A stretch of DNA of 63,536 nt, counting the filler, from Rhabdomonas costata (taxonomy: Eukaryota): the NCBI GenBank assembly GCA_019059605.1. It is 30 parts of 30 records of this genome, joined end to end, with 100 filler letters (N's around TTAATTAATTAA, not from the genome) between each part and the next. Parts side by side here need not be neighbours in the genome. Positions count along the whole stretch, not along the records: positions 40,312 to 42,332 come from JAHMHO010006348.1; 29 more parts are not named here. One strand, written 5' to 3'. The notes under the pieces were generated by a model that was given only the letters and a program-made list of their open reading frames with translations, had not been told where the DNA came from and searched no databases. Shown here in pieces: positions 36,073 to 60,247 of this stretch (positions are counted from its first letter, which is position 1; every line of letters begins with the position of its first letter). Position numbers and translations under genes: made by a program.

Positions 36073-37830
<1,758 letters not shown>

Positions 37831-38337
37831 TTCACCTTTGGAGAACGTTGCTTGGGCACCACTGTGGGCACTTCTTCGGCGCTGCTGGGCGGGTATCGGG
37901 CCTACGTTCCCGGCCTTGCAACAGGGCAAGGACAAGAGCCAGAAACTTTCTTTCTGCGCTGAGCGAGCTGCGACGGCCAACTTATGTTTGCCCTCCGAGA
38001 CCGTGACACCGTGCGCAGAAAGTGGCTCTGGGCGCAAGCTTTGTCGTGGGATTGCAAAGGCTCGTGTGCTGAGATTAAATGAAAACAACACNNNNNNNNN
38101 NNNNNNNNNNNNNNNNNNNNNNNNNNNNNNNNNNNTTAATTAATTAANNNNNNNNNNNNNNNNNNNNNNNNNNNNNNNNNNNNNNNNNNNNTGTGTTGGG
38201 TGTGGGTGGGTGTGTGTGTACCTGAAGACCGCACCGATCTTTGGCAACGTGGCAGTATTGTTATTTATTATTATTATTTTCTGTGGTGGTTGCTCGTACC
38301 CGTTCGTCTCACCCGAAACAAAGAGCAGAATGGACGG

Positions 38338-38860: not shown

Positions 38861-40758
38861 GTAGAGCGTCCAGCGTGATGGTACATCTCGGTGGAACCCG
38901 TATTATCCCATAAGACCATTATTCTTTCAGTGCAGCTTCTTCATCTCTGGGTCAGGGCGCTGGTGAGGGCTGCTGTTCCTTGGATCATAGTTCGGGAAGA
39001 CCGTCAGTGGTTCCTCGGGCTCGCCGAGCTGCCCGTACTGTGCTTCGGCCCGCAGCTACGTGCAAACGGTACAATCGCTGAACTCTCGCTTGCAGCAGCA
39101 CCTGGCCCAGCTGGGGGCCGCCCTTCATGCGCAGGCTAAACCTGCCTCGTGCGCACTTGCTGCTGCGGTTGAAGGTGTGTTTTCGGTTGGTGTGCCGTAA
39201 AAGCATCGTGGATGTGTGATAACGCATGTCGCTTCCCATTTTTGCTGCGCTAAGGCACGTCTCTGACTTTGTAGGATGGAAGTCCCTCGCTCTTGGGAAA
39301 GTGAAGGTGAATACTAAAAAGTTACTGGAGCTGAATTGGAACCTAACATTCGAGTATGATGACGGGAAAACGGGAAAACGGGACAACGGGACTAGCAATG
39401 CGAGCTCACATGCCTCTTTATTTTCTCCATTGCATCCGTCGGAGTTTTCCGTACCCTTTTATCCAGCTCAAATGTGAGCAAAAATTATTTAGATCATTCT
39501 GTCATTCACGATCTTTAAGTCTTTCACGATCTTTAGATCTTTAAGTCATTCACGATTCATTCTGATGCCAAACTGAGTTATCCTGTCCACGCGGACGGAG
39601 CATTTTATTTTGGAGGGATTTTCTTGATGGTCTGGTGCCAAACATTCGTCAATTGCTCTTTTTGTGTCCGCGTCCGCCCTCTTAGGTTGCAACACTCATT
39701 GTTGTGCGCCGGAGAGCACCCTGCCGCCGCCTTCTGGGCCCCCTCCAGAACTTACTCAGCCGAGCCCGGGTACCGGCGCTGTCACCGAAGTTTTTTCACC
39801 GGAGCTCAAAGCAAAGGCTCTGTCTCCGTTTCCTGCCACTCCAGGCAGGGTGCCGAACAACACCTTACCTCAGGCTGAGTGCAGAAAGGCTCCGCAAAAA
39901 GAACGCAAACTTTCGTCGCTTCACCTTCGCGTCAGATTCGAACTGCAGCACGATGCACCCGCTCACGGGGACTGTTACCTCGAACGTGCTCAGCTTCTCA
40001 GTCGCGGGCGCGACCGCAGGTCTAAAACAGAGTGAAAAGACATCGGCAGCATCTGCAAAGGACGCTTCACAAACTGTACCGAATTCTACTAATTCGGTGC
40101 GTGGTCAAAGTTACGTCCGCAGAACTAAGAATAAGGTTGACAGTAATGTGTGAAGGAGATCCCTATCTTCTTAGTCTCGAGGAAGGGATCAGATTGCATT
40201 AACCAAAACAANNNNNNNNNNNNNNNNNNNNNNNNNNNNNNNNNNNNNNNNNNNNTTAATTAATTAANNNNNNNNNNNNNNNNNNNNNNNNNNNNNNNNN
40301 NNNNNNNNNNNGGGTTTTGGTTTTGGGGTTTTGGTAATACCCTTTTCGACTGGCTCCAGCTTCTAAGGGAGCCAGGTGGACCTCTAGCAGGCAGTGGCAA
40401 TTCAATGTGGGTGTGGTGCATCATAAAGCACGGTGGCCTACCGAAGCAAGGTTTAATGCAAGATTATTTACAGGTAGGTGCTCCTCTGTGGGCAATATGC
40501 ATGCGATTTGACTGGAGCGCTATTGCGGCATATTTGTGGCAGCAATTTATGAAAGAAAAAAAATCGTCGGCCTACGAGGCAACGACTAAACTCTGTGGCA
40601 AGTCAGCCACACAGAAAAACCCCAAAAAGCATTTCCCTCGGCCCACCAACAGGAACGCACATCGTTTTAAAAGCACAGATAGGAACTCAGGAACCCATGC
40701 GAACTTTCCTGAGCACTCTCGGCTTCGCTGTTGTCACGAGTACTGAACCAGACAAAAT

Positions 40759-42264
40759 TTAATATTCGTCCGGATCTTCGGCGCCGCTGGGCTCCGAGGT
40801 AGCAAGATCCTTGCAAGCTGCTGTGTAGGAATGCAGCTGAGAGAGCGCACTTTCCAGATTTTCCGGATCATAGGTGTGAACAAAAGCCCGCTTGCGCAGA
40901 AGCTTGCAGGCAGGCAGGCAAAGCACGTCTTCCAAGTAATCCCCAATGCATACGTTGTTATAAACGGATAAGATTCTCCGAGAAGGGTTTCCGTGCAATA
41001 GCCCCAACGGCTTCGCCGCGCACATGCGATAACGAATGCCACACTTGAATCCTGTAGGACACCAGTCCACAAACTGAATGCTGCGGCGGGTTTTGAGGTA
41101 ACCCACGGCAGCCATGACGTCCTTTGGGACAACCTCCCCGCTGAAAGATAAGCACAAGCTCGTATACTTTCCAAGTCGTATCCCAAGGTCAAGGGTCTGG
41201 GCTGCGGGAGAAAAGCACACATTGGTCATCTCAGCCACCGACAGGGACGAGGAGGACTCTTCGAGTGTGGGTCGGGGAGCCATAGCGCTGCAAATGAACT
41301 TCAAAGCTGGGTAGGGAACTAGATTTGCCTCCATCTCCCCCCACGAACTGTTCAGGGCACCGTCCCAACGAATGCCCTGGGTCAGCTCACTGAACCAACA
41401 TCCCATGACCTCGACATTCCGCTGGCGGAGTTTGGAATTCCAGAAGCTGCCCGTGCCCCCCGACCAAGAGTACAGCCCTTTCTGCGAGTGTAGCAGCACA
41501 AATTGTGAGCAATCATTAAGGTGGCTCAGACCCAGCAAGGAGTTGTAAATCAGTTCAGGCTCCCCTCGACCGAACTCGCGTCCAAAGTAGGGCAGCACAA
41601 CAGCTGAGTACACAGAGGCCTTCGAGACCACTGTCTGGATACCCTCAATTATTTGCGTGTTGAGAAGGTCACGACAAAAGGAGGACGCAATCAGTGAAAT
41701 GGAGGGCTTGTAAGGCTCCGCTTCGCAAAGTTTTCTGAAACGCTCAATAAAGGAATCCAGCGTACCGGGGTGTACTGAAGCAGGCTCGCAAACGCACCGT
41801 CGCGCCAGCGTGAGCGGAGTAACGAGGAGCTCCTCAGGTTCACTGCACCGAAGGAGGAAGTGCGGAATAGCACGCCCACAGGAGTCTTCTGAAAAGAACG
41901 GGGACACGGAGGGGCGATTCGGAAGCAACACGCCATCTGACGTAATGCCGTGCTCGATCGCCAGCCGCTCAAGGATCCCCAACCCACAGTGCGCTCCCAA
42001 AGAACCCAGGCCAAGCACAACTGTGCTGCTGGAGCAGCTTGATCTGTTGTCCCCGGTCGATAAAAACCTATCCTGCAGTCTGCGCCACGCAGCCTCATAG
42101 CTCTCGCGACGATAGAAAGGGAGCAAGTGCTGCCTCCACCGTTGGCAAACCGCGGAGGCCGCCACTAGGCTGCTTTCCAGGTCCAAATACTCCCCGATCA
42201 ACAAGACCACGTCCATAACTTCGAACCAGGCAGTCACAACTGTGCAATCGGTACTGAAGTTCAC
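40759..42264 (-). CDS. F-box-like domain fused to a divergent alpha-tubulin (single exon; first ATG at 42216; frame open to the contig end, so possibly 5'-partial)
   Basis: Residues ~13-47, WFEVMDVVLLIGEYLDLESSLVAASAVCQRWRQ, fit the F-box pattern (I..YL....L.....VC+.W). Residues ~80-501 align colinearly with alpha-tubulin: EHGI..DG, FFSE..G, RKL, YNS.L, RWDGALN, NLVPYP, LSVAEMTN.CF.P, GKY...C...G.VVPKDV.AA, SIQFVDWCPTGFKCGI, KRAFVH.Y, and terminal DEY. Confidence 0.93.
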   Translation of the reverse strand: MNFSTDCTVVTAWFEVMDVVLLIGEYLDLESSLVAASAVCQRWRQHLLPFYRRESYEAAWRRLQDRFLSTGDNRSSCSSSTVVLGLGSLGAHCGLGILERLAIEHGITSDGVLLPNRPSVSPFFSEDSCGRAIPHFLLRCSEPEELLVTPLTLARRCVCEPASVHPGTLDSFIERFRKLCEAEPYKPSISLIASSFCRDLLNTQIIEGIQTVVSKASVYSAVVLPYFGREFGRGEPELIYNSLLGLSHLNDCSQFVLLHSQKGLYSWSGGTGSFWNSKLRQRNVEVMGCWFSELTQGIRWDGALNSSWGEMEANLVPYPALKFICSAMAPRPTLEESSSSLSVAEMTNVCFSPAAQTLDLGIRLGKYTSLCLSFSGEVVPKDVMAAVGYLKTRRSIQFVDWCPTGFKCGIRYRMCAAKPLGLLHGNPSRRILSVYNNVCIGDYLEDVLCLPACKLLRKRAFVHTYDPENLESALSQLHSYTAACKDLATSEPSGAEDPDEY

Positions 42265-43473
42265 CTTGAGATTTTCTTCTGGCGAACCCCTCTCAGACCA
42301 AACCGAAGGAGCAAGTGGAAAGCCAAGGCACANNNNNNNNNNNNNNNNNNNNNNNNNNNNNNNNNNNNNNNNNNNNTTAATTAATTAANNNNNNNNNNNN
42401 NNNNNNNNNNNNNNNNNNNNNNNNNNNNNNNNGTGAGTCAGAAAAGTGCAGACTACGAGACCCATGCATCAGCCGGGGAATGCGGGCAGCTGCAGCCGGA
42501 GCAAACGGCTCAGGCTCAGTGTCGTGAGTGGGGCCTTCAGATCACACTCGGTTTGGAAACAGACTGACTGACGTGCTGACGAGGTAGCGTATGTGTTAGA
42601 CCAGCCAGCAGGCGCCTGGCACGCACGCAGCTCACCAGAGCAGAAGACGGTACGTCCCAGTCCCATCTGATCCGCATCAGCTAGAGCGCGTTGCATGCAA
42701 CGCGATTCAAGGAGTTCAAAGTGGGACCGAAATGGCAAGATGCAACCTAAGGCTGGGAAGATTTCCCGAGTGCCACCATACCACCAATTAAGAGCCATAA
42801 ACAACCAGCCAAGCTCAGGTAGTGATGCCCGTGCCTGAGCCATGGTGGCGTCTTCTAATTGTGGGTCGTCACTTTAATCCGAAGTGGACGGAGAGCCCAG
42901 GTTCAGCGAGCGGGGCAGGGCTCGCCTTCTTTGGGGGTAGTCTCTGCACAGTTGCAGAGTGCACGCCTCCCACAGGGGTACTTTGGTATTCTGCAAAGGT
43001 TCGCCCGCGCAGTACAAGCCTTCTTCCACATCCGGGCCGCCAAAGTCGCTCATGAAAACCACCATATAGGAGGCTGTCCTGGGAGCAGCTCAAGTGGAGT
43101 CCCCGAAAAAAAAGGGATATTGGGCGCCTCAGCTGACTGGGCTGGGAGGGTCACGGCCACCCAGCGGGATCGTGCTCGTCGGATTCTGGGCCCAAAAACC
43201 AACCCGGTCGCCCACCTGAACACCAAGGACTGATGTCCGTGCCTGATACCCGACCCTCCGGCTCCGGCTTCGGTTCCACAGCGTCCAGCCAGTAAGTCAC
43301 TCAGTGATTACGACGAAGTCCTACCCCACTCCCACCCTCACTATCTCCGGCATCTTTCTGAGGAGTGTGGTTGCTTTCGAGTTTCCACACACGGGAGGGC
43401 GCGATTTGATGCACGTCCGGATGCCGAGGAAAATAACGCAAGACGGTCAATAATGAGTACAGTTGAAACTCAC

Positions 43474-43609: not shown

Positions 43610-44703
43610 CTTCGAAGAGAAAACAGACTAAAGTGTCGAACGGGATGAATCAGGCTGTGGTAAACTGTGTGTGTGTGTATGTGTGTGTGTGTTAGGCGCA
43701 TTGCGCGCTGGCTGTTGCCTGGTTATGTGTGTGTGTCTGCGTATGTGTGTAAAGCATATTAAAACCTCAGAAAAAGCAGAAGCGATGAATTGCTGACGGG
43801 GTCCATCAGTTGAGACGATGGAAAAAAGTTGAAACGGATTTGAATTTTGCCTACTTCCCACTCGTCACGACTGCCTGCGACTTTGCGACACCTATTACAG
43901 CAACGATCAACGATAGTGCCTGGGGCAAGGAGACGGTTCCCTCCCACTCCACACATACATAGGCTGTCATACACTTCCCAGAACCTCATTTATCGCTGTC
44001 TTACGAAAGGCAGTAACGCCAGCGGTGCATAGCTGCCAGCAATGAATAATGGATGGAAGCCGCTGCATACAAGCCCGCACGTCGACCGTAAGCCATCCGC
44101 ACCACGACAACCTCAGGCGGGAGCGGGTATGAAAGCTGTCACCTGGTTCCGAACAATCCAAACCATAACCCCCCCATTAAACACCACAGAACATGAACCC
44201 GTGAGCTGTACTGACCCAAATTCGGAAGCCACAAGCTGGCCCACTCAAACGCAAAGTTGCGTCACACTGTCCCAACAGGATGCGATATGCAGAACGGCGA
44301 TCCTGCACATTTTATCTCTCGGCACCATAACACACTTTGAAAGCATTACTCGCAGCGGAATGAAGAGCAATACATGTGACGGTGGTGGCCCAGGAGGGCT
44401 GGAATCCAGACACTTTATCTGTAATATATGTCTATCCAGACAATAACCCTCCCCNNNNNNNNNNNNNNNNNNNNNNNNNNNNNNNNNNNNNNNNNNNNTT
44501 AATTAATTAANNNNNNNNNNNNNNNNNNNNNNNNNNNNNNNNNNNNNNNNNNNNTGTTTTTGGTGCAACGTTAAATAATGCAATGGAAACAGTGAAGGCC
44601 GCGAAACTGCAATCGTTCCCTTGTGCGCGAGTTGCTCTTCAAGGTGACAACATGAACGTTCCCTTCTTTCCCTTCTTTCCCTTCTTTCATCTCTCCTTCG
44701 CAG

Positions 44704-46575: not shown

Positions 46576-46952
46576 NNNNNNNNNNNNNNNNNNNNNNNNN
46601 NNNNNNNNNNNNNNNNNNNTTAATTAATTAANNNNNNNNNNNNNNNNNNNNNNNNNNNNNNNNNNNNNNNNNNNNGGGTTGTTGGCCCAGAGCAGGCCGG
46701 AATGCTTTGGTTTGTAGCTGCTGTCGAAGCCATTCCACAGTCGGAGATTCGTGTTCTTCTCTTAACCTCATGCAGATCCCTATGAGTCAATCCTCTTATC
46801 GAACCGCTGTTGGATGATGAGCATTATCTAAAAGAAAATTATCTAGCTGTATAATAAGGACTATCCACCCTGAAAAGTGGAGGGGGGGGGATCAACAGTA
46901 AACCCTATTTTTCAACTGGAGTTGGGCTCTTTTTCTTTGGTTCTGCTTCAAG

Positions 46953-48291
46953 GGCCTGGCGATCGTGCGTCAGCTGGTGGAGCTGATGGGAGGCACATTG
47001 AGGATGACTTCTGTAGAAGGCGAGGGCTCCACCTTCTCTTTCACCCTGTTGCTGGAGGCCCACAACACCGAGCACCTCGAGGCCGCTCCACAGGACGCTG
47101 TGGTGCTGGCTCCGCTTCTCGGAGTTCGGCTGCTGGTATCCCCACTTCGCTCAATGATGGCACGCATGATCGTTGACCGCGAGGGACGTACATTCATCCC
47201 GGCCCGAAATGCTTCCCCCCATTGCCGCTGTGTTCGCGGCGTTTTGGTGGAAGTGTAGAGAAGTATCATAGGAAAGATGAAGAGGAAAAAACCTGGGTTA
47301 TTTTTCAACTGGAGGTTTGACTTCACTCCAGTTATGCATGCTCACTTCCCGTGGCCTCCGCAGGTCGTGGACGACAACGCTATCAACCGCGCTGTGATGC
47401 AGAGCTTCGCCACCCGGCTGGGCTGCGGCGTGGAGTTCGCTGTGGATGGGCTGCAGGCGGTCCGCTTTTTTGGGGAGGTTTGTGGTCGCGCACGAGTTTC
47501 CTCTTTTCACCATTGCAGCTAGCTCTGGCATAGCTTCTGTTGCGTCCACGTCGGGGACCCATTGCGCTCGACGTTGCCGCGTTCGAGGTTTTAAGTGAGG
47601 GGTTGGGGCTCATATTTGGTGGGATGGTAGTACTCCTGAGATGAGCTGGATGGCCGCTTCCCTGTCTGGGACATCTTTACTATGCCTAGATATGACCCCT
47701 TCAAGGTCCAATTTTGGCCCTTTTAAAAGGGCATTGCCGACGTAAAAATTTCAGCGGTCTGATGCACCTTTTGGAATAATGCAGGCCTTCACACTGAGCC
47801 TAAGCTTTCGGCCTGTCCTGCTTAGCGTACCTAAGGGCAGAGCCCAGGAGTACTTCATGCTGGCACCGGAGTGGGCCAGAATGCTTGTGTTTACAGGCAC
47901 CCCAGAGGACTCGCCAATGACCATTTGTTTAGGGACGAACGCCAGCGAAGTGGCGGGCCCCGGAGGCCAACCCGGAACGCGGCCGGAGTGGGCGGATGGG
48001 GATTTTGCTCCATTGACTACCTCTCTTTCATATCATTTTTAGTCGGGCCTCTTTTCCGCTCATTGGTATGCCGCTTTTCGTCGTGTTCCTGAGGGCTGCT
48101 TCTTTTTGTTGTTGTGCGTTCTGACACAGAAGCACCCGCTCGCGGTTTTGGAGACGGTGGACTCGACCCCACCGTTGACGTCCATCCCGTCAGGCAATCC
48201 TCTCAGCCCCCATACAAAGACGAGCACCACCACTCTTGCTGAGGTGGTCACGGGCCCTGGCGCCCCCGTGGTGGATATCGTTTTTATGGAC
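46953..48291 (+). CDS. Hybrid sensor histidine kinase: end of HATPase_c plus receiver domain (exons 46953-47135, 47364-47459, 48130-48291)
   Basis: GLAIVRQLVELMGGTLRMTSVEGEGSTFSF (G2/G3 boxes), RLL|VVDDNAINRAV (REC beta1), AVDGLQA, and VDIVFMD (phospho-acceptor Asp). Confidence 0.93.
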
Positions 48292-49207: not shown

Positions 49208-50639
49208 TTCATGTGCCACCGCTGCTCTGGGATCTCGCGGGGGACGGTGCTGACGGCCTGCGGGTTGGTGATGATGCTGCGCTTGTATCCCATCGCCCCT
49301 CCGAAGAACACCAGAGGCACGGAGACCAGGAACCACAGCGCGATCTGTGTGCCCCCCCCCCTATGCACTGATGGGGAAGTTCCGCAGGAGTGGTGCAAGG
49401 ACTAACTGTATGGCGTTGTGTACGACTCTCTTCGATCCGCTGCACTGCTGACTCCTAAACAAAACGCTGTGGTAAAGTAGCAGTAGCAGGTATAGTAGGA
49501 GTAATTGGAGGAATCGTTTCCTCCGGTGTGGGCAGGAAAAAGTGAAAAAAAAAGTAAGAGCACGGGTGAAATGGACAGAAAGCATAACAGAAAACGGATG
49601 TGCACCTCCAACCTCGATAGAGGAGCAAACGTGATTTACCAACACTCCGAGCGGCTCATACACTGTTGTGGTGGGTAAGGGGCATTTTCCGTTTGTAGGG
49701 AGAAGAGAGAGAGGCCCCGCAGAGATACCAGCCCCACGAGGCCGAAGAAGGGCACTGCGCTCGCCGCGCCCTGCTGCCACAGCATGAGGTTGAGCAGGAA
49801 GAACACCCCAAACACCTGTTGTAGACGGCAGTGGGATGCAAGGGGGGCATCGATGGAGAAAATGAACCCACCTATATTTATAAATGCATTCTTCTGGATT
49901 CTGGTTTCTTTCCCTTTCTGCTTATCCAACAACTTTCTACGCGATCCGAGGTGCTGCTAACTTAAGCCATTTTAAAATTCCTCATTCCAGGTGCTGTGAT
50001 GATTCTGTGACGCCACTGTTTCTTTTTGCTACAGCTGACTGAACAATTTGGATAATAGATGTTTTCAGAACGCAACCCGCTGTTTTGCCCCGAAAGGGAG
50101 CACAGCTGACTGCAAATGCATTGTTGTCTCTAAGTACATAAGGTTGGCCGGGTGGGCATCTGAGCCCGTGGGGATCAAGTGCACCGAGGGGCCGTTATGA
50201 ATCATAGACCCTAAAACTGTACTCCACCTCCCGTAGAGGCAGCGCCCTTCAGGGGGAATAGTGGTGACTGGAAGGGGGGGCGAGCACAAAGCTCACTTTA
50301 GACCGTACGAAACGCACCAGAACAACCTCTGAGTTGGTGCCGCAACAACCTGGAGTCTCTCGTTCACACTTCAGAAGATCAGAGACACAAGGGGCAAGAA
50401 TTAAAAACCAAAAGAAGGGGCAATAATTAAAAACAAAAAGAAACCAAGAAAAAAGGCTTTGACAGACATCCAGACCTTTCCGGGGAAGTACAGGCTGGTC
50501 ATCAGGATGGTCCTCCAGCTCTGCTCGTGGAACATCTTCGCCAGCACGGCGGTCACGAAGCCCCCCAGGCTTCCCATCAAGCAGAACAGCACCAGCATGG
50601 TGGTCATCAGCCACCCCCGGCGAGCAGGGGAGAGGAACC
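49208..50639 (-). CDS. TM9SF/EMP70 nonaspanin, internal exons (50639-50476, 49815-49729, 49344-49208)
   Basis: GFLSPARRGWLMT...FPG, LNLMLW..G...AVPF, and LWFLVSVPLVFFG...GY....P......PREIP.Q.W. Junctions are phase-consistent. Confidence 0.95.
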
Positions 50640-51234
50640 CTGGTTTTGGTGTTGAATTTTCCCGCCAAATCCTCCCAAACAACAACGGAAAGCGCTCAAA
50701 ATTACCATTGGGCAACGGCGCATTAGCCGTCAGACCTGCGATGTACAAAGCATCACAACTTAATCCCCCTCCCCGAGCCTCATATATAACAAAACCAAAG
50801 AAGGAGGCTGCCGCATGNNNNNNNNNNNNNNNNNNNNNNNNNNNNNNNNNNNNNNNNNNNNTTAATTAATTAANNNNNNNNNNNNNNNNNNNNNNNNNNN
50901 NNNNNNNNNNNNNNNNNTTTGTGGGTGTTATATCTTGGAACCACCGGTGCCGCACTAGGTGAGCAAAAAGGTAATCAAATTTTGCTGCACGTCGCTATTG
51001 CGTAAAGGAGTATAAATTAGTTGGAGGAGTGTGCGGGGCAAAATAGCCGCCTTGGTAAGGGATAACGTAAAGAACCCGCAGCCGTTTCCGTGCCTTTGGG
51101 TTCAAGAACGAAACATGAAGCTCGAGGCGTTTCGGCTTTCGCTCCAAGAAAGAAGGTGTGCACTTTGCCGGCCTTGTCCCTCCGCTGACTCTGAGGTGTT
51201 CTTGTGTGAGTGTGAGAGTTGTCTTCACTTGCAG

Positions 51235-54815: not shown

Positions 54816-55995
54816 GTATGCACGCCTGTCCTCTCCCTGTCTCTCTCTGTTCTTCCGATTTCCGATGCGAAGCATCCACAAATGTCGGCCACCACCCCAC
54901 AGTTGTTAAGAACCCGACGAAGAGCGTCCAAGGCTGGCGGAGATGGTGCCTTGCTGAGGATGACCCAACCACTCCCCCCGGGTCGAAACGTCAGTCACTC
55001 TAGTAAGGCATCAGATCATTTAACTGCTCAACCCAGAGTTCACCACCACCCACANNNNNNNNNNNNNNNNNNNNNNNNNNNNNNNNNNNNNNNNNNNNTT
55101 AATTAATTAANNNNNNNNNNNNNNNNNNNNNNNNNNNNNNNNNNNNNNNNNNNNGTTGGTTGTGAGCGTACGCCACTTTCCTTTTCTTCTTTCCAGGTTG
55201 CCTTGGGTGCATTCTGTTTTTGTCATGCTTGGGACGAAGGACCAGCGCCAGGCGGTCTTCTCCCCCCTCCCGCCCCTACTTCCCGGAGGTATCTGCAAAA
55301 AGATCTGTACACTACCTGTGCCGCTCTTTTAGCCGCCACATACTTCGGACGTCATGCGCGGAAACCCTGGCCCGTCGTGGGGCGTGAAAGGTCTTCGCAG
55401 CACTCGCACCGGAGTATGCATGAGTGTTTGTGCTCCTTCGGATCTGCCTCGCTGGCACTGCGAGAAGGCTTTCTTTTTTGCAAATCGAGAGATGATGAAT
55501 GGCTGGCGGAATTTCTCTGCGATATTGTAGGGACCCTCTGAGGACTGTAATGGGTTTAGGGTCCCCTTCCGCAGTGTGGCCAATCATGGGAGAGGTGGGG
55601 GGGGCGGAAAGCCCGACGAACGAAGGCGAGCATCACGTTGATGGGATGTAAATCTCAACGCTGCTGAAGTGTTTGGCTTGACAAAAAAATTTGTGACTGC
55701 ATTGCTTGTGCGCATAGAAAGTCCGGGTCACCAACTTCGCGCCGAGCCACCGACTTCGCAAGCTGGCATCTCAACAGGCTTGAAACCACACCCTTGAAAA
55801 CCCATACGGAGCTGAACCACAACAGCAACCCCATCACTCTTAAGGGAAACTGTGCCGCAGCTTCTATTTTTATCCTTCTCTCTCGTTTCTGATTGCACCT
55901 GTGCTTTTTTGGTTTATTATCGCTTATTCAAACGTGATAGTAAACTCTGTCGTTGACGTGCGCCTTTACAATTTCTTTTCCAACGCGGAGTGACT

Positions 55996-56973
55996 ATGTC
56001 CTCCCCCGAGCAGCACATGTCGGCCTCGTCCCAAGGAGAGGGCCTTGCGGAGTTCTCCAATCCTCTCTCTGGACCAGCGCCGGCAGGCCACCAGTTCAGG
56101 AGGCTGAGAAGCTCCCTGAGCAGTGGTCGCTTTGTTGAGGCCGCCCACCTGGGACCCGCTTCATGCTGCATGGGGTTCCGGGTTCCGATCTGGTTGCTGA
56201 TGGTGCTGCTGGCCGTGGTGTCGGCCGCCGCGGTGGGAGTGCTGACGTTCTGCCTGATGTACTTCCGCAGCGTCAGCGCAATCAACGAGGTCGGGGTGAG
56301 CTACCGCGGGGTGTACTGCACGGTGGTGCAGAACGAGGTGGTGGCGTTCTTCACTCGCATCATGGGGGCCACCCGGCAGACGCTGAACTTCGCCTTCCTG
56401 GCTGGGGTGGGTCCAGGTCCGTGCATTGTCTCTCAGGAGTCTTTTTCTAGGGCTGCCAGTGCTGCGATTTCTAACGTGTGTGGGTTTGCAGACTGTTTAT
56501 ACTGTGATGAGCGGCATTGTCTTGTCCTTTTGCATACTCTGTGTTTTCGTTTCTTTCAGCGGGTGCGTGTTGCCTTTTGCACAGGACGGGATAGGTTTGG
56601 GCGTTTTCTTTATTTGGAGGCCACAGACCTTTCAAACGAGAGACTTTGGATTGCCACGGCGCCACTGAACTGGCTGGGGCTGTTTGGCTCTGTGCATGCA
56701 GGGTCCCTGTACCCGATCGAGTTCCGGAAGTACCTTTTCTCGGCCTCCGGGGTTACCAGCGAGGCCAACAGCCTAGTGATAGGGCTGGCCAGCGGGGAGT
56801 TCTTTGGCCTGGACCGGGTACCCACGACGGGGGAGCTGCACTGGGGACTGAGCAACGCGCAGACGGGGTACCTGTTCAGCACATTCCCGGCTCCGGGGTG
56901 GGGGGAGGATGAGTGGTTCCGGGAGTTCGGCAACATCACGACGGTTCCTGGGCACAAAAACACCACTGTTCGG
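55996..56973 (+). CDS. Membrane receptor with N-terminal TM helix and a Cache-like extracellular domain, 5' part (exons 55996-56416, 56702-56973)
   Basis: TM helix IWLLMVLLAVVSAAAVGVLTFCLMY, then a long helix, then SLVIGLASGEFFGLDR, which resembles the dCache y.g...G.f.g motif. Phase-1 GT-AG intron. Confidence 0.65.
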
Positions 56974-57506
56974 GTGTGCGCGCTTGGGTTTTATTTAACT
57001 GGTAGACTTTCTGTGAGGCTCGGAATAATGATCCCTATGAGTGATATAGTGTGGTGCTTTTCATCGTAGATGCAGGTGGCTCATTGCATGATGTGGAGTC
57101 TGAATTCTGGGTCGTTGAGACCATGTTTACCGGAGAGCTCACGAATACTGCGGACCGACACAAAAACACTCAGGNNNNNNNNNNNNNNNNNNNNNNNNNN
57201 NNNNNNNNNNNNNNNNNNTTAATTAATTAANNNNNNNNNNNNNNNNNNNNNNNNNNNNNNNNNNNNNNNNNNNNGTGTGGGTGTGACTGAAGAAGGCAGC
57301 GCTCCAAAATGCCGGTGGGCCATTACATCTGCATAAGGCATGAGTTTTGGGTTACGAACGTGAAATCTGAGTCTTACATTACGAGCCTGGTACTTCTCCG
57401 AAAACAGAGAGCTTTGAGTTAATTACTTTCTTTCACTGCTTTGTCTTTCCTTCGATTTTTTTGACAGTTTTCTTTTTGCTCATTTTCCAGCTTAACGATT
57501 TTCGGC

Positions 57507-57726: not shown

Positions 57727-58738
57727 GTTTCCTGGGGGTCGATGGGGGGTGGGGATTCGTCCTTCCTGAAGCTGAACAGCTGTGGCTTTGTAACACTGAG
57801 ACAAGCCTCGTTATAGGCTCGGTGTTCTGGCGTGAGAATTGGTGCGTCTCTACCATAGTAAAGGCACGATATTGACCTCACGTTACTTCTTATGGTTCGG
57901 GTTACTGGGACAGTGTATAAGATTATGAATGTTTCTCGCGTTGCTGAAGGTATCTTTAGAGTTTCTACAGAATTGAATTCGTTTCCAGGGCTCTTTTTTA
58001 GAAACTAAAAGTGACGCACACCTGGCGTTTTCCTCGGAAAGTTTTGCTGCGCCTTAATTTCTTTGACAGTGCAACAAAAGCCCCAACCGCACCACAACAC
58101 CGGGTTAAACCGAACTTTTCGCCTCCTTTTTGGGTCTCCTGTAAAGTAGTGTGTGTATGTGGGGGGGAGGGGGAACCGGGCACCACTGGTGCCCGTCTAA
58201 AACCCCCAAAATTCTAAGTGTGATCATTCAACAGTAAGTACCTAGAATCATGGGCCGAGGACCGCAGCGGAGGCCCAAGACATCCTGGAGTAATCCGCTT
58301 CTGTTAGAATCCCAGGGGACACGTGCATAGCCACCTAACCCTTGCAAATCTTCTACTCGAATTTTTTAGACTTGAGCGAAGCTTAGCTTGAGGTGTATTC
58401 CTGTGTCGCTTGTTTCCTGTGTCGCTCGGTGCAGGAACACGGGGTGCTAACATGACTTGACGGGGGGAGCTGCATATTCGACTTGATCGAGGAAGGGAGG
58501 GGGGTGTTGTCTTATTGACCTTCGCCCAGAAAAAACGTGGCGCCAAATATCACCGCAGTTGCAGCGGTTGACCCACCGGTGGCAGCATGCGTGATCCTCG
58601 AGAGTTTTCAGACGACGTGCTGATGAGAGGGAATCCGGACGGACGATGGGGGCGCCCCTACATTCCATTACTACAGCGGCACAAGGCAGCAGCAGGTCCT
58701 TCTACAGAATCCCTTCGCACCAATCGCGCCACATGCAC

Positions 58739-58870
58739 CTTGGTCAGGTTGGAGAGGCAGGTGAGGGCGATATCCTCCACTTCCGCTAGGTCCGTGGAGC
58801 CCAGCACATTGTCCAGGACATTGATCAGCTCCTTGATGCAGCCTGCACCCAACACATACTGCAAAGCAGC
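58739..58870 (-). CDS. ARM/HEAT-repeat-like exon
   Basis: AALQYVLGAGCIKELINVL...DIALTCLSNLTK fits the G.i..Lv.lL...A...L.NL ARM pattern. CAG| acceptor and AAG|GTGCAT donor. Confidence 0.65.
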
Positions 58871-60247
58871 CTGGCGTTTCCACGCGATGAATCGTTCCCC
58901 CTCAGAGCTGAATAAATTCTTCCCACCCACAACTGCCCACCACATCCAGGACTCCCTATCACGTGTGTCCTTCCTGTTGCTGCGACTCTCCCTTCTGCAC
59001 CCATCACAGTACCACAAGCCCGGGATGGATAAAGAGCAGCTCAGCAGGAAAGCCAGAAAAACCAAACAGAAAAATCCGCGAGCAAGCAATGAAACAACCG
59101 CATGCAGACACACCGGCGTTGGAGATGTTACCCAGGTCAGCGGATTGAGTGAGCCCCAGCACACAGTTCAGCAGCCCAGCCTTGTCCTGGGGCACCGAAA
59201 GCTGTCTCACACAGTCGAACAGCCTATTGAAAAACATGCGCACATGCACACGCGCTTAAATGGCAAATTTTATTCGATACCCAGGCACAACAAACCNNNN
59301 NNNNNNNNNNNNNNNNNNNNNNNNNNNNNNNNNNNNNNNNTTAATTAATTAANNNNNNNNNNNNNNNNNNNNNNNNNNNNNNNNNNNNNNNNNNNNTGTG
59401 TTAGGTGAGTTTGGGTGGGGTGGTGTGGCGAAAGCAGCGATCGATGGTGGTGGCTTGATGCATTCCTAAGGTAGAGGTGTACGTTCTATGGAAAGAAGAA
59501 AAAGTCACATCTCATGGGGTTGATTCGGCCGGGTTCGCAATCCGCCATTTGGAAGAAAGGGCGTAAGAGAACCAATGAGGTGGGCATGCTCTCCCCATCC
59601 CGTTGACTGGGGTTATTGTTGCCATCCGCTGTTACTGTTACTTTTAATTATGGATCATTACAAATAATGGCCCCATAAATGAGCGTCGAAGCTTGAACCA
59701 TTATCTGATGAACCACAATTTCCCATCTCTCAAAGTTGTTTTCATCTGTCGGAAGAGTCCCGTCTTAAACCATTATTTTTCTTCACTGAAAATCCGTGGT
59801 TGATCCATTATCTTTCAGATCCATGCCTGGGGTGTGTCCAGCCGGTTGTGCACACCTCAGATCTTCGTTCAGAAACAAAGGAATACAACAGCTCGGCGCC
59901 ACCCACAGGGGAGCACAAGCGTTGCACAGACAAGACAAAAAAGCCAGCAAAAACGCCACAAATGAGAGAGAAAACCCCGAATCTTACCCCACCACCAGCA
60001 CAGCACCGGCCCCCCCCCAAAAAAGTGGCACAAAAATGACGACAAGATGAGCGAGATGCCAAAGGCGACCGGGCAGCGACTCCTTCCTCCCCTGGAGAAA
60101 TCCAGGATGTGGCCCAGAATGTCAACAAAAGAAAAAAAACGGCCCACTGACTGTCATACAGTTCCCGTTACTTAGAAAGCAAACACGGCCCTCATCAACT
60201 GGAGCTGGGGCAACCGGCATCATTACCGCGGATCCTCACAGGAGGCA

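Follow-up and report, generated by a model that had tools for sequence, protein, structure and literature searches.

Tubulins are among the most constrained of eukaryotic proteins. Alpha-tubulin requires its non-exchangeable GTP for a stable dimer, its intermediate domain docks on the exchangeable-nucleotide end of beta-tubulin, and its residue E254 triggers GTP hydrolysis by beta. DARPin D1, stathmin/RB3 and CPAP PN2-3 occupy the longitudinal end of beta-tubulin and so block subunit addition, and the -EY end of alpha-tubulin is read by CAP-Gly domains and by the tyrosination cycle. Here we describe a gene of Rhabdomonas costata, on contig JAHMHO010006348.1 of assembly GCA_019059605.1, whose product is, by its sequence, clearly derived from alpha-tubulin, has lost the GTP motifs and keeps an alpha-specific intermediate domain. 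An initial annotation of this DNA had called it a one-faced tubulin, with a destroyed GTP-binding face and a conserved minus-end face. The contig was analysed in a window of 63,536 bases that joins about 30 unrelated contigs of about 2.02 kb, apparently ordered by length, so that adjoining sequence is not genomic context. The joints have the form N44-TTAATTAATTAA-N44, spacers with stops in six frames (58 N-runs of 44 and 29 linkers), and any finding across a linker, or any neighbour-gene context, would therefore be an artefact.

The first ATG of the minus-strand open reading frame (ORF) is at position 42216, and the product has 485 residues. The initial annotation had rightly placed a tubulin-derived minus-strand gene here, but its span of 40860..41960 covers only about residues 86–452. 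The ORF frame has no stops, whereas the remaining five frames of the same DNA contain 11, 16, 14, 15 and 18, and it stays open for 523 codons when counted to the contig end (42330). The probability of finding no stop is 1e-11 for 523 codons under uniform codon use and 3e-7 for 485 codons under the empirical stop density. GC content at third codon positions (GC3) is 0.63 overall (0.65 for codons 1–270, 0.61 for the remainder), and the GC content of the 3′ flank is 0.48. Comparison of three alpha-tubulins with the contig by tblastn resulted in a single colinear, one-frame high-scoring segment pair over alpha residues 4–434 (E 2e-44 to 3e-40), and the other frames gave nothing better than E 0.03. 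Thus, the odd N-terminal half is not a frameshift artefact, an origin that we considered and rejected, and the gene has no intron-like break. The window holds no second copy of the gene, the next tblastn match having E 0.21. The gene is intact and, in our reading, under selection rather than a dead copy.

Both halves of the protein carry traces of their origin. Pfam PF03953 (Tubulin C-terminal/intermediate domain) matches residues 303–429 with 72.6 bits against a cut-off of 26.6 (E 4.3e-20). PF00091 (Tubulin/FtsZ GTPase domain) reaches 15.2 bits (E 0.027), under a cut-off of 33 that 26 of the 27 other tubulin matches scanned pass. A comparison with PDB sequences gave 170 distinct chains at E ≤ 0.01; the best 60 of these 170 are all alpha-tubulin, with a top E value of 1.3e-45, and the strong stretch runs from query residues 274–467 on alpha 234–427. 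For the N-terminal half we built a hidden Markov model (HMM) from alpha N-domains, which gave the N-domain alone 15.4 bits, a value reached by none of 2,000 shuffles (maximum 6.3). As a lead only, the language-model neighbours of residues 62–283 are Tubulin GTPase clusters, with a score of 0.85. The N-terminal half is a decayed tubulin domain and not foreign sequence.

An AF2 model computed from a 101-sequence alignment has a predicted local distance difference test score (pLDDT) of 79.5 and a predicted template modelling score (pTM) of 0.79. Foldseek placed about 440 columns of this model on alpha chains, with target-normalised TM of 0.81–0.87 and 26–27% identity. The top match was the alpha-tubulin of a cofactor D/E/G complex, and every top match was simply alpha-tubulin. 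The tubulin fold is thereby predicted to be kept across both domains. Relative to canonical alpha-tubulin (chains of PDB 6u42, 9e78 and 9e2g), the protein is colinear over alpha residues 4–434 with the same predicted fold, and it shares the H10-S9 motif IQFVDWCPTGFK, the GALN of T7, E254, KRAFVH.Y and the terminal -EY. It differs in lacking the GTP motifs T1, T3, T4, T5, N206 and Y224, and in having a 16–17-residue deletion near H2, a shortened K40 loop and a 64-residue N-terminal extension. Its M-loop, H3 and H12 are degraded, D251 is replaced by Ser and W407 by Thr.

To describe the nucleotide site, alpha residues are numbered as in P0003, which is the standard alpha numbering, and secondary-structure boundaries are approximate. 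Destruction of the GTP-binding face, as claimed by the initial annotation, is supported at the sequence level. Among 25 positions that we take to be the GTP contacts of the N-site, 17 are changed and 8 kept. The changed positions include all of G143, G144, T145 and G146 together with Q11, D69, D98, N101, N206 and Y224; E71 is kept. Beyond T1 and T4, the contacts considered lie in T2, T3 and T5 and at N206, Y224 and N228. The replacement of the T1 GQAG by GSLG was read correctly (residues 71–74), and the same is true of ASSFCRD in place of the T4 signature. These residues, 177–183, stand in the right place according to the AF2 model, where strand S4 takes up residues 172–178, the loop 179–183 and H4 begins at 184, and none of the eight positions is identical to FGGGTGSG. 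The T3 motif is indeed absent, but its description as a deletion depends on the alignment. Two MAFFT alignments put a 16–17-residue gap at alpha 73–89 (H2 region) and leave the 12-residue TPLTLARRCVCE in the T3 slot; BLASTP gaps the same region differently. MAFFT also opens a gap of 6–7 residues in the K40 loop, and K40 is absent. Identity to the alpha consensus is 6/19 for T1/H1, 1/12 for the T3 slot, 2/11 for T5, 1/18 for S6-H6 and 4/20 for H7. The M-loop (3/14), H3 (4/23) and H12 (6/21) are degraded to a similar degree. These changes argue against GTP binding, heterodimer formation and polymerisation, and GTP binding has presumably been lost.

The intermediate domain is far better kept than the N-domain. 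Identity to the alpha consensus is 43/205 over residues 1–205, 65/138 over residues 244–381 (T7-S10) and 18/54 over residues 382–435. At columns conserved in at least 90% of alpha-tubulins the corresponding counts are 27/94, 41/61 and 17/40, and the difference between N-domain and T7-S10 is significant with a Fisher p-value of 3e-6. The elements kept are H9 (7/9), H10 (9/13), H10-S9 (11/13), S9 (5/10) and KRAFVH.Y (8/13). Within them, the alpha-specific H10-S9/S9 sequence (FVDWCPTGFK) is identical at 11 of 13 positions and at all 10 of the columns conserved in at least 90% of alpha-tubulins. H10 and the H10-S9 loop are thus near canonical, as initially described. The T7/H8 segment, given the same description, is only half canonical: RWDGALNSSWGEMEANLVPYP retains the E254 equivalent as E294, and T7 is identical at 4/8 positions, with G246 and N249 kept. 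The replacement of D251 in the catalytic T7 loop weakens the earlier idea that the protein may act as a GTPase-activating protein (GAP).

The kept elements can be set beside published energies for the contact between dimers. On the alpha side of this contact, the per-residue energies of PMC4452272 place the H10-S9 and H8-S7 loops and S9 first among the stabilisers, give H8 and H10 importance as well, and single out W346, Y262 and K352 as key residues. Our protein has all three of these residues (W385, Y302 and K391), and the elements so named are the best kept, in agreement with a conserved minus-end face. For the plus-side face, the same paper names R401, F404 and W407 of beta with the T2, T3 and T5 loops. 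At the aligned alpha positions of our protein R402 and F404 are kept and W407 is lost; the T2, T3 and T5 loops are gone.

We compared the protein with 100 alpha and alpha-like sequences. In 27 of 30 elements it ranks lowest or near-lowest (rank 0–5 of 84–100), and only H9 (48/100), H10 (19/100) and H10-S9 (14/100) stand higher. Eight divergent alpha-like tubulins from the database matches (P0218, P0252, P0231, P0259, P0224, P0250, P0180 and P0181) resemble it in being alpha-derived, with lowered identity and a recognisable H10-S9. All eight retain a GGGTGSG-type T4 (0.75–1.00 identity) and, where the N-terminus is present, a GQAG/GQPG-type T1, whereas their H10-S9 identity is 0.46–0.77 compared with 0.85 here. 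The pattern of loss is therefore reversed.

The tubulin body is preceded by an extension in which residues 2–32 probably form an F-box. Two Pfam profiles match residues 2–31 over profile positions 7–35, F-box-like with 22.2 bits (E 1.2e-4, cut-off 24.3) and F-box with 16.9 bits (E 0.006, cut-off 20.5). As a lead only, the language-model neighbours of residues 1–62 are F-box clusters throughout, with a best score of 0.86. The initial annotation was largely right in what it observed, but it missed this motif, the loss of D251 and the -DEY end. When the 38 codons upstream of the ATG were added, the profile match grew no longer. The first 38 nt or so of this upstream stretch (42217–42330, minus strand) are about 70% pyrimidine, and several AG dinucleotides follow. 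The stretch could be a 5′ untranslated region with a cis-splice or spliced-leader (SL) acceptor, or further coding sequence; we estimate the chance of 38–39 stop-free codons there at about 0.15.

To look for similar fusions, 122 full-length-like tubulin matches were reduced to 22 with N-terminal extensions and 5 lacking a strict T4 match. The scanned set covers 7 of the 11 sequences that lack a strict T4 match, P0026, P0048, P0057 and P0079 being left out. All 27 tubulin matches scanned, whether extended or atypical, lack an F-box. Extra domains found among the scanned matches were Pex26, GH20, RVT, Ig/Sushi and BTB_2, and these look like gene-model fusions. The BTB_2 domain (E 3.3e-5) stands before a fully intact alpha-tubulin in P0067, a fungal 'alpha-tubulin' record of 824 aa. 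BTB is a cullin-3 adaptor fold, so P0067 is a possible parallel, although it is probably a gene-model fusion. Our literature search found no F-box-tubulin fusion and no GTP-less tubulin paralogue, and the available portions of PMC12816148 and PMC3935182 contain nothing on either.

Taken together, we tentatively favour a non-polymerising pseudo-tubulin adaptor that combines an end-docking cap with F-box recruitment, a reading to which we give somewhat less than an even chance. The protein would be a pseudo-tubulin with a full-length, alpha-tubulin-derived body and a probable F-box in front. Its lateral contacts (M-loop, H3) and its motor and microtubule-associated protein (MAP) surface (H12) are degraded; without a GTP pocket and with these surfaces degraded, it should form no normal alpha-beta dimer and enter no lattice. 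The intermediate domain stays alpha-specific, chiefly in H9, H10, the H10-S9 loop and S9, with W346, Y262, K352 and E254. Through it the protein may bind the exposed beta-tubulin end, on free dimers or at plus ends. Once it is docked, nothing could add on top, and further subunit addition would be blocked. The F-box may then bring in Skp1/cullin (SCF), leading to ubiquitination of tubulin or of an end-bound partner. In its most specific form, which we regard as rather unlikely, a cytoskeletal subunit would have become an E3-ligase substrate receptor for the polymer it once built: an SCF receptor whose recognition domain is a GTP-less alpha-tubulin, docking by the natural longitudinal contact on the exposed beta ends of free dimers or growing plus ends, capping them and marking tubulin or end-bound proteins for ubiquitination. 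The suggested link to degradation draws on a single observation, the sub-threshold F-box match. The features of the gene are collected in Table 1.

Table 1. Features of the pseudo-tubulin gene and its contig, with positions along the window.
Feature	Position	Strand	Basis
Contig carrying the gene, 2,021 bp	40312..42332	.	linker positions
ORF, 485 codons and TAA stop (40759–40761), without intron-like interruption	40759..42216	-	stop count, GC3, tblastn
Upstream in-frame open stretch, 38 codons, without ATG	42217..42330	-	frame open to contig end
F-box-like motif (probable), residues 2–32, DVVLLIGEYLDLESSLVAASAVCQRWRQHLL	42121..42213	-	sub-threshold Pfam, language model
Linker, residues 33–64: predicted helix 40–51, then Ser/Cys-rich stretch	42025..42120	-	AF2, low confidence
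Degenerate nucleotide-binding domain, S1 to H7, residues 65–283, fold predicted kept	41368..42024	-	identity counts, AF2, Foldseek, HMM
T1 remnant GSLG, residues 71–74, replaces GQAG	41995..42006	-	alignment
T3 slot TPLTLARRCVCE, residues 133–144, 1/12 identical to GKEDAANNYARG	41785..41820	-	unstable alignment, pLDDT 56–59
T4 slot SFCRD, residues 179–183, replaces GGGTGSG	41668..41682	-	alignment, AF2
T7 loop and H8, residues 283–299, RWDGALNSSWGEMEANL; E254 equivalent E294 at 41335–41337; D251 equivalent Ser	41320..41370	-	alignment
H9 VAEMTNVCF, residues 327–335, 7/9 identical	41212..41238	-	alignment
H10, H10-S9 loop and S9, residues 364–399, PKDVMAAVGYLKTRRSIQFVDWCPTGFKCGIRYRMC; W346 and K352 equivalents; conservation peak	41020..41127	-	alignment
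H11-H11′ motif KRAFVHTY, residues 442–449; R402 and F404 kept, W407 replaced by Thr	40870..40893	-	alignment
C-terminal DEY, Tyr last as in alpha-tubulin; acidic tail shortened	40762..40770	-	alignment

Several results weigh against this interpretation, and the main weakness is that neither an orthologue nor a sign of expression was found. HMMER, run in full over 1.84e9 representatives, yielded 2,031 matches, all at the level of ordinary alpha-tubulin (at most 153 bits) and none an orthologue; the sole outlier, P0122 (271 bits), was rejected because it is a tandem alpha-alpha tubulin gene-model fusion. In P0140, a beta-tubulin C-terminal fragment is joined to alpha-tubulin, and both records look like read-through gene models of tubulin arrays, which can mislead orthologue searches. 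A word-index search gave 160 matches among 8,000 scored candidates (best 169 bits), a result swamped by ordinary alpha-tubulins and without an orthologue. The N-terminal 272 residues alone had 4,718 candidates, none at E ≤ 1. A scan of metagenome contigs with the N-terminal 275 residues produced 140 pattern matches and a single locus confirmed by tblastn, but no orthologue was accepted; that locus, L001, was rejected for a stop inside the match, which consists mostly of the searched pattern itself. Among the libraries searched, the euglenid transcriptome-derived protein sets contained no near-identical full or partial match. According to PMC8219788, the Rhabdomonas genome draft is very fragmented, and its protein set is transcriptome-derived and reduced at 90% identity. 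With no orthologue, cross-species conservation, the usual proof of function, is missing. In addition, the short-read contig is only 2 kb long and may lack the 5′ end of the gene, and the AF2 model leans on an alignment of alpha-tubulins only, a 26-sequence alignment having given a pLDDT of 46. The F-box match is below the curated Pfam cut-offs and lacks the leading Leu-Pro, with a pLDDT of 36–60, and in the catalytic region D251 is Ser and H8 is identical at only 3/8 positions.

A further point of this kind concerns the surface, which we addressed by per-element counts, by a comparison of polar with hydrophobic residues and by the published hot-spot residues. Interface elements keep 24 of 31 strongly conserved columns and the rest of the intermediate domain 17 of 30, a difference that is not significant (p=0.11). 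The buried elements H9 and S8 are among the best kept, so that the whole intermediate domain is conserved, and R402 and F404 of the opposite face survive. The term 'one-faced' is therefore right in direction, but conservation is not demonstrably confined to one face. A softer point favours constraint at the surface: in T7-S10, polar or charged consensus residues are kept in 21 of 42 cases and hydrophobic ones in 22 of 41, which indicates that the constraint is not on core packing alone.

This spread of conservation over the whole intermediate domain, rather than the interface alone, also suits the alternative that survives best. In this alternative, the pseudo-tubulin is functional, but its partner is not the beta or gamma end; it could serve as a decoy, or as an adaptor, for proteins that recognise alpha-tubulin itself, e.g. 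cofactors B/E and other CAP-Gly proteins via -EY, the tyrosination/detyrosination enzymes or the chaperonin. The DEY end is retained though H12 is only 6/21 identical, and the best Foldseek match lies in a cofactor D/E/G complex, if among top matches that are all plain alpha-tubulin. We nevertheless consider such a role unlikely: the acidic tail is down to a few residues and K40 is absent, and the strongest conservation peak (H10-S9, W346, K352) coincides with the inter-dimer contact as given in PMC4452272.

The next alternative, which we also judge unlikely and slightly more so, is a lineage-specific duplicate of alpha-tubulin, maybe a retrocopy, that is decaying with its frame still open and has no maintained function. 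The failure to find an orthologue in any searched collection, or a transcript-derived protein match, is what such a duplicate would show, as is the fact that, in nearly all elements, it diverges more than any other of the 100 alpha-like sequences. According to PMC8219788, 2 introns interrupt the tubA gene of the nearest named euglenid, and the present gene has none over 1.57 kb; an intronless ORF next to a two-intron tubA would fit an origin by retroposition. If the gene proved to be unexpressed or confined to a single species, it would be a mere curiosity of gene decay. Neutral decay to 21–47% identity, however, predicts about 15 stops at the other-frame density, and none is seen. It would also run evenly along the gene, yet the two halves differ (p=3e-6), while GC3 is raised in both. 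Finally, the terminal -EY is kept and the alpha-specific H10-S9 is intact at 10/10 conserved columns.

A third possibility leaves the cap or sequestering pseudo-tubulin as it is and takes the F-box match as spurious, the first 64 residues being a mere extension or targeting piece with no ubiquitination link. Both Pfam models indeed stay under their cut-offs (22.2 vs 24.3 and 16.9 vs 20.5 bits), the language-model score of 0.86 is within the range reached by a third of shuffled proteins, and model confidence is low in this region. Against this, two independent profiles fall on the same 30 N-terminal residues, which is where an F-box usually lies, the E value being 1.2e-4 for the library as a whole, and all ten best family-bearing language-model neighbours are F-box. 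We regard this possibility as quite unlikely. The weakest alternative, a working tubulin that pairs normally with beta and is built into special microtubules (pellicle, flagellar), has on its side the predicted full tubulin fold and the surviving plus-side residues R402, F404 and E71, but it is highly improbable. A stable dimer depends on the non-exchangeable GTP of alpha, and T1 and T4 (0.75–1.00) are kept in all eight of the divergent alpha-like tubulins, whereas T4 here is 0/8. T3 (1/12), T5 (2/11), the M-loop (3/14) and H3 (4/23) are eroded, and W407 is lost.

In the rest of the window, a Pfam scan covered 150 of the 156 ORFs of at least 110 aa; the others were four overlapping the gene described here and the final two in the list. 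It yielded no more than two short exon-like matches, which fits an intron-rich eukaryote. The first is a TM9SF/EMP70 fragment at 50404–50817 on the minus strand (E 7e-11), which matches EukProt RCo017857 in 51 of 56 residues and a Euglena gracilis transcript at 71%, in line with a euglenid source close to Rhabdomonas. The second is a fragment of HATPase_c, a histidine-kinase-type ATPase, at 46902–47255 on the plus strand (E 1.2e-6, 34 residues matched). Long open frames on the plus strand at 55957–57069, 37262–38143 and 58572–59348 have 370, 293 and 258 codons from stop to stop. None of the three has a Pfam family above threshold, and only DUF456 (E 0.0055) was found, for 55957–57069. On an adjoining contig, a GT/CA dinucleotide microsatellite at 43630–43700 appears as CVCVCV and THTHTH runs in translations.

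What sets this protein apart is that every divergent alpha-like tubulin inspected (n=8) retains the GTP motifs and it does not. If our preferred interpretation of an end-docking pseudo-tubulin is true, loss of the nucleotide site together with a kept alpha-side longitudinal contact would make it a natural separation-of-function tubulin, useful for work on how ends are recognised and capped and on GTPase activation. A genuine F-box would mean a new route by which ubiquitination is coupled to microtubule ends or to the pool of free tubulin, and the SCF-receptor version, if true, would provide a natural, genetically encoded plus-end-specific cap and degrader.

Among known systems, the nearest general likeness is to pseudo-GTPases and other pseudoenzymes, which likewise keep the enzyme fold, lose all nucleotide motifs and retain the partner-binding surface. 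Our literature search found no described tubulin-family pseudo-GTPase of this kind, Misato/DML1-type tubulin-like proteins lying outside the comparison. SCF F-box substrate receptors likewise carry an N-terminal F-box motif, about 30 residues long, ahead of a separate domain that binds proteins, but the motif here is below the Pfam cut-offs and lacks the leading Leu-Pro. With the beta-end cappers DARPin D1, stathmin/RB3 and CPAP PN2-3, which appear in the titles of complexes among the Foldseek matches, the protein would share the proposed principle only. These cappers are unrelated folds or designed binders, whereas here the contact surface of tubulin itself would serve as the cap.

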